Source: Eledone cirrhosa (Eukaryota). From it: a stretch of DNA of 64,000 nucleotides. Position numbers and translations under genes: made by a program. The notes below the pieces were generated by a model. The model saw nothing but the letters and a program-made list of their open reading frames with translations, made no database searches and was not told the DNA's origin. Of this stretch, positions 51,095-54,178 are shown one piece after another (the stretch's first letter is position 1; the number at the start of each line of letters is the position of its first letter). The stretch is taken from contig OZ024747.1 of the NCBI GenBank assembly GCA_964016885.1, positions 48,980,001 through 49,044,000 of the forward strand, given 5' to 3'.

Positions 51095-52425
51095 GTGTAG
51101 AAGGTGAGTAATATGTAATATTGTAGAACAATAAAATTATGCATATATCAGATAAGTAGCACTCAACAGTTGGTAGAACTGGAGTATATATAATAAAGAA
51201 GAAATTAAAAGATGGTTAAAAGAGTTCCATATATTTTATTATGCGCATTTCGAATACAAAATCATCCTGGGAAATTTTTCAGCTAGACATAAATTACAAA
51301 CACTAGATATGGAAGCATTGGAGTATGGAGATGCGTTGTAGATTTTAGGCCAAAAAATTTTGTAATTTATGTTTTTGTCTTTTAAGGACCAAATAAGTTA
51401 TAAAAGGATCAGTACCGCACTATCAGAAATTATTTGGTCCTTAAAAGACGAAACCATAAATTATCTCGAATTTCAACACAATAATAAATCGAAGAACCGA
51501 TTTATTTGGACTTTGTAATCATAAATCCTACAAAACCTTTTACAAAGTATATAGCTGATCTCCTATAACATATTCCACCAGTCTAGGTTATCTTTACACA
51601 TCTTTCATTATATTCTACAATGTATTAATTTGGTTTTCTCATCATATATTATGCCTTTGATCTTTTTTTCTATAGCCTTAGATTTTCGCTCAAACCTTCG
51701 TAGATTTTGTAAACAAATTGTGACATGATATGTCTTTCTACGTTTATAAACCTTTCTAGCAATTTCCTTTATTTACTTGTTGATATAAAATAAAAATTAA
51801 ATAGTATACCCCACATATATAGATTTTTACTAGAAATTATTAATTTTGACATAGATAGACTATTTTTATTTTTATTTTATTTTATAAAAACCCTGTTTTT
51901 ATATTTTTTTTTTAATATTTATTTTATTTTATTTTATTTTATTAATACATGTTTACACTTCTTAATCCAATTTTCAGTATTTAAACTCAATGTAAAATAT
52001 ACCCAGTTTCTATATTTAGACCTCTAACATACCATCTATAATATTCGCACATACACCTCATCAATTTACTTTTTAACCGTTATTTACAGCTGTTTTCATT
52101 TTGACAGAGTTCCTGATCATAAGTCTCTTCCTCTCTCTTTCTCTCTCTCTCTTCTTCTTTTCTTCTTTTTTCTCCTTTCTTCTCTTTCTTTTTCCTTTTT
52201 CTCATCTTCTTTCCTTTTCCTCTATGTTCCTATCTATTTCTTACTATAGTATCATATGTAGACTTAGCACTTCCTGTAAACAGGTGCTATTATGCCTCAT
52301 ATCATGTTACCTTATTTTATCTGATGAGAACACAATTTTTGTCCCAGGATGATTTTGTATTCGAAATGCGCATAATAAAATGTAGGGAACTCTTTTAACC
52401 ATCTTTTAATTTATTCTTTATTATA
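51095..52425. mobile_element. Family H1 element with inverted short arm (51095-51272) and long arm (~51480-52425)
   Basis: 51187-51272 is the reverse complement of 52342-52425. Bounded by (TG)n and (TA)n; internal hairpin at 51364-51463. Confidence 0.75.
52314..52381 (+). ncRNA. Type I hammerhead ribozyme motif, canonical core
   Basis: AUUUUAU-CUGAUGA-GAACACAAUUUUUGUCCCAGGAUGAUUUUGUAUUC-GAAA-UGCGCA-UA-AUAAAAU; G10.1-C11.1; predicted cut after 52374. Confidence 0.85.
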
Positions 52426-53542
52426 TATATATATATATATATATATATATATATATATATATATATATACTATAGAGTAAAGCATGTCCATGGTCTGATT
52501 AATTTATTAATTCTCCATTGAGACACATCGTGAAAAGTTGCCAAAACACATATATACCTGTGACTTTGTTTAATTGGTGTATGTGTAAATATTTATATAT
52601 ATATATATATATATATATATATATATATATATATATATATATATATATATATATATATCTTTGCTTTCTACTTGGAAGTATTGTTCGAGTGCTCCTTGGT
52701 TCATTTTGAATAAAAGGTGCCAACATGGCCTTTGAAATAGCAGGTGCTTGCTTACCTCATAATCACTGTCACGTAACACTGAGAGTGGAGATTATTACTG
52801 TAATGGCGACTTCAAACCAAGACAGTAGGTTAGCACTGAGCTGTTCCGAAGAGGCTAATTTTCCTCGTTGATGAAGCTACTCTTAGTCGATTACGAAATA
52901 CTTAATAGCATTACCTTACACTCACACATATTGGATATTAAACATATTGGATATCTCCACCACTGGACGGATTTATGATTACTGGATAAATAAGGGGACC
53001 AAAAAGCAACGTAAAACCATTTATTTTCCTGTATTTCGCATAAAGGCCTTGAGCTGGAGCGCCCCACACTTCATCCGATAATGGACGGACATGGAATTTT
53101 TATATGCACTTTACATGGACAAAATTAACCGGTCTTCCCACTGAATTGTGAATTTAATTGTGAATTTAATTTAATCACGGCTTTATTGATAAAGGACTTC
53201 AACATCTGATACGAGTTATCACCAAGTCACAACCAGTGACCTCAAGAGACAACAAGGTCCGCCATGTTCAAGAAAGAACATACATACACACACATGTATC
53301 TTTAGGTGTTTAGACTTGTGATGTACTTATATTGACAGAATCTTCCTTAGTATATGGGCAGTTCCCATTAGTACTATCTTTTGTATTTCTCCTATACGCG
53401 GGTTTCCTGGGATTTGCGATAAGAAATATTATTATTATTATTATATATAATAATAATAATAATAATAATAATAATAATAATAATAATAATAATAATAATA
53501 ATAATAATAATAATAATAATAATAATAATAATAATAATAATA

Positions 53543-53731
53543 AGGGCGGTGAATTGGCAATATCGGTAGAGGGTCAGACGCTATGCTTTCTAGCATAGTT
53601 ATGTCCCTTTATGATCTGAGTTCAAATCCCGCCGAGGTTAACTTTGCCTTTCATCATTACGGAGTCGATAAAATAAAGTACCAGTAATGTACTGGGTAAT
53701 TGCTGGCCTTGTGCCAAAAAGTAGAAACAAT
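53543..53731 (+). mobile_element. SINE S1, full length, after (TAA)n
   Basis: Matches the other S1 copies. Confidence 0.87.
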
Positions 53732-53859
53732 TATTATTATTATTATTATACATATATATATATATATATATATATATATATATATATATATATATATATA
53801 TATATGGTAAGAATATTTTCGAAACAGCGAGTTGGTTTGAAATTATTAGAAATGTAAGC

Positions 53860-54059
53860 TATCGCCGTATTTTGACTAAAGAAATTAAAGAAATTATTTA
53901 GCCTGATAGTGAGGTTAAGAACCCTCGGAGAAATGGAAAATGATGAGTATTGACATATATGTACGTCAATACTCATCATTTTCCATTTCTCCGAGGGTTC
54001 TTAACCCCACTATCAGGCTAAATAATTTCTTTAATTTCTTTAGTCAAAATACGGCGATA
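53860..54059. repeat. Near-perfect ~200-bp palindrome
   Basis: ~95-bp arms meeting at gagtattgac-atatatgtac-gtcaatactc. Confidence 0.9.
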
Positions 54060-54115
54060 TATATATATAATACGATATATTAACAAATGGAAACTATATT
54101 TATAAAACCATATTT

Positions 54116-54178
54116 ATTTCATTATACATATTTCAAGGACACCAAGTTAAATTATGGTGTGCTTTCATCAGATAAAAT
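54116..54178 (-). ncRNA. Type I hammerhead ribozyme motif
   Basis: AUUUUAU-CUGAUGA-AAGCACACCAUAAUUUAACUUGGUGUCCUU-GAAA-UAUGUA-UA-AUGAAAU. Confidence 0.8.

Follow-up and report, generated by a model that had tools for sequence, protein, structure and literature searches.

Hammerhead motifs and the element that carries them

The window, by which is meant the whole 64-kb stretch of Eledone cirrhosa DNA that was analysed (C7:48980001-49044000), holds five hammerhead motifs with a C mismatch at position 4 of stem II, all of which were found in the sequence as an earlier note had given them. Each is laid out as stem I, CUGANGA, stem II, GAAA, a palindrome of 8 nt running from A15.1 to U16.1, the cleavage base and the other side of stem I; by this layout all five belong to type I, with the palindrome as stem III. 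Four lie on the minus strand and only the motif at 52314 on the plus strand. The stem I sequence AUUUUAU/AU(A/G)AAAU is indeed common to four of them. The five had been taken to represent four stem II sequences; the motifs are real, but their lineages number three, since 52314, 54986 and 333 share one family cluster.

The plus-strand motif (52314..52381) belongs to a sub-branch of family 1 and has the stem II pairs G-C, A-U and A-U followed by C.A, with C10.4 at 52331 opposite A at 52359, the stem III palindrome AUGCGCAU and a predicted cut after 52374. It stands near the 3' end of a 5'-truncated copy of a Hydra-type Penelope-like element (PLE; 51273..52439, plus strand), in which an endonuclease remnant with a 5' inversion (51269-51558) is followed by the 3' UTR, the hammerhead and (TA)n, the last starting 47 nt past the cut site. 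The remnant comprises the C-terminal part of the endonuclease ORF with its CxH motif and stop (51460..51558, plus strand), placed by comparison with the ORF protein P0001, and the inverted piece with the CxxC...E motif (51269..51406, minus strand). Beside it lies the 3' half of a hammerhead from an inverted, 5'-truncated partner copy (51233..51272, minus strand), which the earlier note had overlooked.

The minus-strand motifs comprise a hammerhead of the family 1 sub-branch with C.U at position 4 (54986..55053, in the truncated copy 54938-55399), a family 1 hammerhead, also with C.U (333..401, in the truncated copy 284-776), a C.C hammerhead of the family 0 group (54116..54178, in the pLTR fragment 54070-54249) and a C.C hammerhead of family 7 (32550..32609). 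The last is probably a dead copy, because its first stem I pair is broken, with C opposite C where family 7 has G. A (TA)n tract begins 43-54 nt past the cut site in four of the five window copies, and none was found within 400 nt for the 333 copy. A long near-perfect inverted repeat (53846-54056) adjoins the 54116 motif.

A covariance model trained on 26 family representatives, including four of the window motifs, recovered the five at E <= 8e-13, together with an inverted C.C pair at 14627-14887. One member of the pair, again overlooked before, is a C.C hammerhead with a stem-loop II of ~100 nt and the stem III ACGAUCGU (14627..14760, minus strand), and its inverted partner, also C.C, has a stem I whose 5' side is cut short by the inversion junction (14756..14887, plus strand). 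An Rfam scan of 52250-52420 and 54080-54220 gave no hammerhead family among matches up to E 10; the Rfam hammerhead models do not cover this form. Hammerhead-like motifs free of the mismatch are also seen in the window at 1389, 1928 (minus, C4 pairs with G), 6360 and 7674 (minus); those at 1389 and 1928 have U.U plus a 3-4 bp stem II and the 6-nt palindrome ACUAGU, a type that occurs as ten distinct strings among the fetched loci. Elsewhere the window contains an array in which a 58-bp unit is repeated about 47+ times at 93-96% identity (59436-62300), fragments resembling the reverse-transcriptase ORFs of other non-LTR retroelements (39296-40973, 62350-63069 and 21448-24464; six-frame listing, by eye), and many microsatellite hairpins giving sub-threshold miRNA matches.

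By their sequence context the motifs sit in the terminal repeats of one clade of Hydra-type PLEs. Upstream of them is a single ORF of about 740 aa (742 aa in the ORF analysed), with RT followed by a C-terminal GIY-YIG-type EN and with the motifs RWR, KSDKT, YRDD and IYNC...YVG. It has a CxCX5C linker (the first linker C is changed in protein P0003), CxxC and CxH around the EN residues E and N, and no CCHH. The Hydra clade was defined by RWK-like and DKT motifs, CxCX5C, CxxC and CxH, and no CCHH (Craig 2021, PMC8557442). Searches of Pfam, NCBIfam and PDB sequences gave no real hit naming the ORF, a representative search returned 5,856 unnamed relatives at E <= 0.001, and for the EN piece no relatives of greater length were found. 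The nearest named protein is from Argonauta hians (39%), and the metagenome relative L225 is homologous at E 5e-140 with 36% identity. Among viral contigs there were no relatives of the ORF, and none of 119 pattern loci there had proper stems. A further Hydra-type endonuclease fragment lies in the window at 44500-44868 (plus strand), with no hammerhead of the C-mismatch class found beside it.

Complete copies have the order pLTR-ORF-pLTR, with a hammerhead in each repeat. A tandem array (L419-L420, C7:78.45-78.47 Mb) consists of three identical head-to-tail units of 4,011 bp with four hammerheads; its units hold open 738-aa frames, and many similar open frames occur elsewhere, so the family of the array is very recent. 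With its long 3' UTR this 4.0-kb unit exceeds the usual Hydra size, generally <3 kb, which is a tendency and not diagnostic (PMC8557442). Most copies are 5'-truncated, often in inverted pairs, and end in (TA)n, with the hammerhead about 45-55 nt before (TA)n at the 3' end; in tandem copies it stands upstream of the ORF.

Position 4 of stem II across the genome and the clade

Pattern counts were made over the 3.0-Gb genome with the core and a stem III of AU-NNNN-AU-A fixed, the reversed pattern serving as control. C.C at position 4 of stem II gave 83,275 matches versus 27 in the control, so the pattern is not due to chance, while C.A or C.U gave 29,461 (111), C-G 537 (38) and a base other than C 6,340 (592). 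C stands at position 4 in 113,273 of the 119,613 motifs of the class and is paired with G in 0.5% (only 537 of the 119,613), and a position that is usually Watson-Crick paired, the result that would have told against the earlier note, was not what the genome showed. The C had been called invariant; it is kept in 94.7% of copies and in 16 of 17 family clusters, which is short of strict invariance, and the one non-C cluster has two members, with U in one copy and C in the other. The mismatch had been described only by its 5' partner; C.A and C.U do occur, but the typical form is C.C.

By eye, the first 100 rows of the exception lists mostly hold copies of the same families in which one base has changed, often at CpG. 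Family-2 copies with G-C at position 4 account for four of the first 100 non-C rows (by eye; two form one inverted pair) and for 2 of 12 in one finer-cut cluster of that family, and are perhaps a minor paired sub-lineage. The count patterns miss stems III beginning A-C and loops II over 40 nt. A long-loop C.C search yielded a further 1,750 matches versus 300 in the control and adds more families; a search for A-C...G-U stems III yielded 13,559 motifs versus 2,932, and among the matches listed stems II were mostly short or fully paired. When 110 kb fetched irrespective of motif was scanned with the covariance model, four motifs were found, three C.C and one U.C. In contigs of three sequencing runs no variant was listed at C10.4, and several were at neighbouring places; all three are from one sample, which may be the genome's source, and the result is given no weight here.

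At about 113,000 copies the class is among the most numerous hammerheads counted in one genome, the retrozyme hammerheads of the axolotl having been put at 126,247 copies (PMC7229834), and a class of >100,000 copies is missed by the standard Rfam models. A second Hydra-type group (L197:5821 and L363-L392) has the stem III ACAAUUGU and a stem II that is 2 bp long or fully paired; hammerheads with this stem III number about 10,000 copies above control in the genome.

For the comparison between families, 260 distinct motif-plus-flank strings were clustered on all columns except position 4, giving 22 clusters, from which one cluster of targeted exceptions and four with A-C stems III that lack the position-4 loop were set aside (three of these four have C-G at position 4 and one is a junction artefact). 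Position 4 in the remaining 17 is C.C in 13, C.U in three and U.C in one, and is never paired; many of the clustered loci came from searches demanding C at position 4, so that these tallies lean towards it; the counts over the genome are free of this bias. With the clusters cut more finely, pairing at positions 2, 3, 5 and 6 is seen in 17/17 and at position 4 in one, the outgroup. Among 26 hand-picked rows there is no pair at position 4, against 26, 25, 24 and 26 at positions 2, 3, 5 and 6. The pairs themselves vary: position 1 is A-U in 7 rows, G-U in 6, G-C in 5 and something else in 8, position 3 is U-A in 12, A-U in 7 and G-C in 6, with 13 double changes, and position 6 is C-G in 16, U-A in 8 and G-C in 2. 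Double changes occur at 17 of 19 pairs while the hammerhead core is invariant, and the covariation score was reached by none of 500 shuffles of the 26 rows, a control that ignores kinship.

Three other readings of stem II were tried and dropped. A register with a bulged 9.1 base fails because sliding by one lowers pairing to 29%; in the youngest family, which has A opposite C at position 1, either register is possible. A rule that pair 5 is always purine-pyrimidine (17/17 at the finer cut) was broken by a C-G family in the long-loop search, and reading 11.6-11.4 as an NUH-like triplet founders on an opposite strand that is not GAAA and on the occurrence of G-C at position 5.

Four families, representing 4 of the 17 clusters, could be tied to ORFs (L418, at 80% identity, is family 1), and families 2, 5, 7 and the small ones are off the tree because most of 20 fetched stretches gave no ORF. 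The four are 45-53% identical in amino acids and form one clade, with SH-aLRT support of 98.4 in a fast 27-row tree and 0.92 in FastTree; the 27-row tree was computed without 13 metagenome rows, one duplicate family-4 row, published proteins and a non-Hydra outgroup. Outside the clade, metagenome Hydra-type elements (77 loci at 30-38% identity) have 43 distinct stems II, and wherever these are long enough position 4 is paired (38/38), most often as C-G (13). It is paired as well in the Hydra rows of File S2 of Craig 2021 (PMC8557442). The paired and short-stem families of the Eledone cirrhosa genome likewise fall outside the clade, L417 on only 150 residues.

One young Hydra-type family (L393-L412; C1:13981791-13982031, minus strand) has 1,138 candidates, the best 40 at 98-100%, with C.A at position 3 of stem II and a loop II of ~75 nt. 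A 145-residue fragment had put it inside the C.C clade, and with 440-527 residues it falls outside. Its core is mostly CCGAUGA, CUGAUGA being found in 3 of 23 rows among the matches listed for a CCGA query, and the lineage may have spread with a damaged core.

The earlier observation that flanking pairs of stem II covary while position 4 stays unpaired therefore holds, and does so across families whose neutral sites are saturated: fourfold sites are 25-31% identical between the four ORF-linked families, against 26-31% at saturation, so passive inheritance cannot keep C on both arms. From these comparisons the 1x1 loop is likely a selected, lineage-specific feature of the clade, whose simplest history, we infer, is one change of C-G to C.C followed by constraint. 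Cleavage is probably under selection too, because no family of the clade has lost the core.

The constraint could instead act on DNA, through a promoter or endonuclease site in the pLTR or through C.C, a mismatch that DNA repair handles poorly, escaping repair in hairpins; or the C could simply have been inherited. The pLTRs of other PLEs do hold promoters and endonuclease-recognised tails (PMC6765202, PMC11167929). The bases flanking C10.4, however, change freely but compensatorily, and both arms are constrained, which is not what a linear DNA motif predicts; one family of about 29,000 copies still carries C.U and C.A, and for inheritance the saturated synonymous sites are a further difficulty. 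We consider an explanation of this kind improbable.

What may keep the cytosine in place

Loop II varies from 3 to ~100 nt between families, and in the 16 motifs compared no position up to 15 nt from stem I, on either side, is invariant, so that the canonical loop I-loop II or pseudoknot contact is missing. The stem III palindrome is fully pairable in 26/26 rows, these being 8-mers that have no monomer fold, and in the commonest families, in which it is made of A-U pairs, its duplex is worth -2.2 to -3.2 kcal/mol. With a stem III that needs a partner molecule and a palindrome duplex predicted to be weak, the ribozyme looks weak.

The register of the 1x1 loop is fixed relative to the core and not to loop II: however long loop II is, exactly 3 bp separate the 1x1 loop from the core. 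This fits an RNA tertiary element in which C10.4, or a narrowed C.C, would touch stem I, or the partner RNA of a dimer, at the backbone or in the minor groove, or would bind Mg2+, and would take over from the loop I-loop II contact. A base-phosphate contact made by cytosine does not depend on a conserved partner base, which suits such an element. Pairs 1 and 3 of stem I are pyrimidine-purine in 16/16 motifs, although a pyrimidine at 2.3 is (by eye) also common in paired Hydra hammerheads. Contacts between stem I and stem II are, moreover, an established route to fast cleavage (PMC3088659), but in the one min-HHR tested no hidden tertiary contact was found (Cervera 2014, PMC4209133). A base-specific form of the contact, as could be read from the earlier note, is not supported by a stem I and flanks that hold no invariant base, though a contact to the backbone needs none; the distal architecture of stem I also varies by family. 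Overall we regard a tertiary element as possible but doubtful.

A mismatch might instead act as a folding hinge: with the three inner pairs of stem II only marginally stable, the core would wait for dimerisation or chaperoning to form, and the RNA would not be cut too early. The partner base may be C, U or A, as a hinge would allow, and predicted pairing at 10.3-11.3 in isolated stems runs from 0.00 to 0.97 and is below 0.5 in 7/16. The stem would be weakened by a mismatch of any kind, but what is kept is C10.4 and, mostly, C11.4, and families with strong G-C inner pairs have the same loop, which makes a hinge unlikely.

The reading we favour, tentatively and at a little under even chances, is that selection keeps C at position 4 because the element's own protein docks there. 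The 1x1 loop would be the place where the RT-endonuclease binds and holds a weak ribozyme in its cutting fold. Following established PLE biology, tandem or read-through transcripts would carry two motifs, whose 8-nt palindromes would pair between copies to give stem III, for which a monomer offers no more than 2 A-U pairs. The element's RNA would then be processed by a cut behind the NUH triplet. An ancestral C-G pair, once changed to C.C, would have offered a contact in fixed register for the ORF protein to read. Docking is favoured because one PLE hammerhead, of the Poseidon type, was cleaved only with its ORF protein (PMC11167929). PLE hammerheads have been found to cut poorly in vitro (PMC4209133, PMC11167929). 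The weak stem III, the variable loop II and a stem I with no invariant base can all be read in favour of a protein.

Several observations count against docking. An RNA-RNA contact would account for the constant spacing of 3 bp from the core at least equally well; the proteins have diverged to only 45-53% identity and the loop has not changed with them; Hydra elements that lie outside the clade, some of them in the Eledone cirrhosa genome, have spread without it; and the few family-2 copies with G-C at position 4 speak against a strict need for it. A known C-C mismatch in RNA, too, is dispensable for protein binding (PMC4274661). The more specific proposal, that the C.C loop is a handle by which the RT-endonuclease switches the hammerhead on and so couples cleavage to assembly of the retrotransposition complex, is correspondingly more speculative, and we would sooner doubt it than adopt it. 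If true, it would give a protein-dependent natural hammerhead its first known sequence determinant, present in >100,000 copies. Whatever the loop does, the comparison singles out one nucleotide pair outside the catalytic core that a whole clade keeps, and with ORFs intact and over a dozen natural contexts available the question of what activates PLE hammerheads in cells comes down to a small mutagenesis experiment.

Comparison with known hammerheads

A close likeness is to the hammerheads of Hydra-clade PLEs (Craig 2021, PMC8557442 File S2), which share the type I core, a position near the 3' end and the (TA)n target, with U.U or G-C at 10.1-11.1, an often long stem II and an ORF bearing the Hydra motifs (PMC8557442). 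The metagenome relative L225 has the same hammerhead as Penelope-1_NV. The published octopus element Hydra-1_Obim has a different, fully paired one (PMC8557442). In the published Hydra forms examined and in the metagenome forms position 4 is paired and stem III is mostly of 9-10 nt (40/43), unlike the 8-nt palindrome and C.Y 1x1 loop found here.

The min-HHR of metazoan PLEs described by Cervera and De la Pena 2014 (PMC4209133) are similar in their pLTR location, their long helix II and their palindromic helix III, regarded as a dimer signal, and in having many families per genome, mostly truncated copies and inverted pairs. The earlier note had given a short stem II as usual in minimal PLE hammerheads, but long helices II are already known from the same work. 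The present motifs differ in having, in the register favoured by covariation, no extra base between 9 and 10.1, and in having no conserved G10.1-C11.1 and a conserved internal loop. By eye, a mismatch at position 4 occurs in 2 of the 56 rows of Fig. S3 of that paper, C.A in S. purpuratus 1 and U.U in C. sinensis 2, as single examples that the paper does not single out as a feature.

Type I hammerheads of non-LTR retrozymes (PMC7229834) also combine a short palindromic helix III with a similar order of copy number; there helix II is of 4 bp, loops 1 and 2 are in contact and the setting is one of short tandem repeats. The Eledone cirrhosa motifs are without those loops and are carried by PLE copies, autonomous or truncated. 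The Poseidon PAc hammerhead of Anolis (Frangieh et al. 2024, PMC11167929) resembles them in its intact core and weak architecture but belongs to a different PLE clade; no stem II determinant is identified in the available text of that study, and cleavage was dispensable for insertion in vitro.

The suggestion of a possibly undescribed variant is borne out to the extent that the 1x1 loop is absent from related elements and is not described in the hammerhead and PLE literature searched, which included the accessible parts of PMC4209133, PMC8557442, PMC11167929 and bioRxiv 10.64898/2026.07.22.740005, with Lunse et al. 2017, the bioRxiv supplements and Repbase/Dfam outside its scope. In the repeat annotation of Octopus vulgaris the word hammerhead is absent from the main text (PMC13282606). 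That hammerheads occur in pLTRs, and that helix II can be long and helix III palindromic, was known before (PMC4209133); what is likely new in the Eledone cirrhosa elements is the conserved 1x1 loop.
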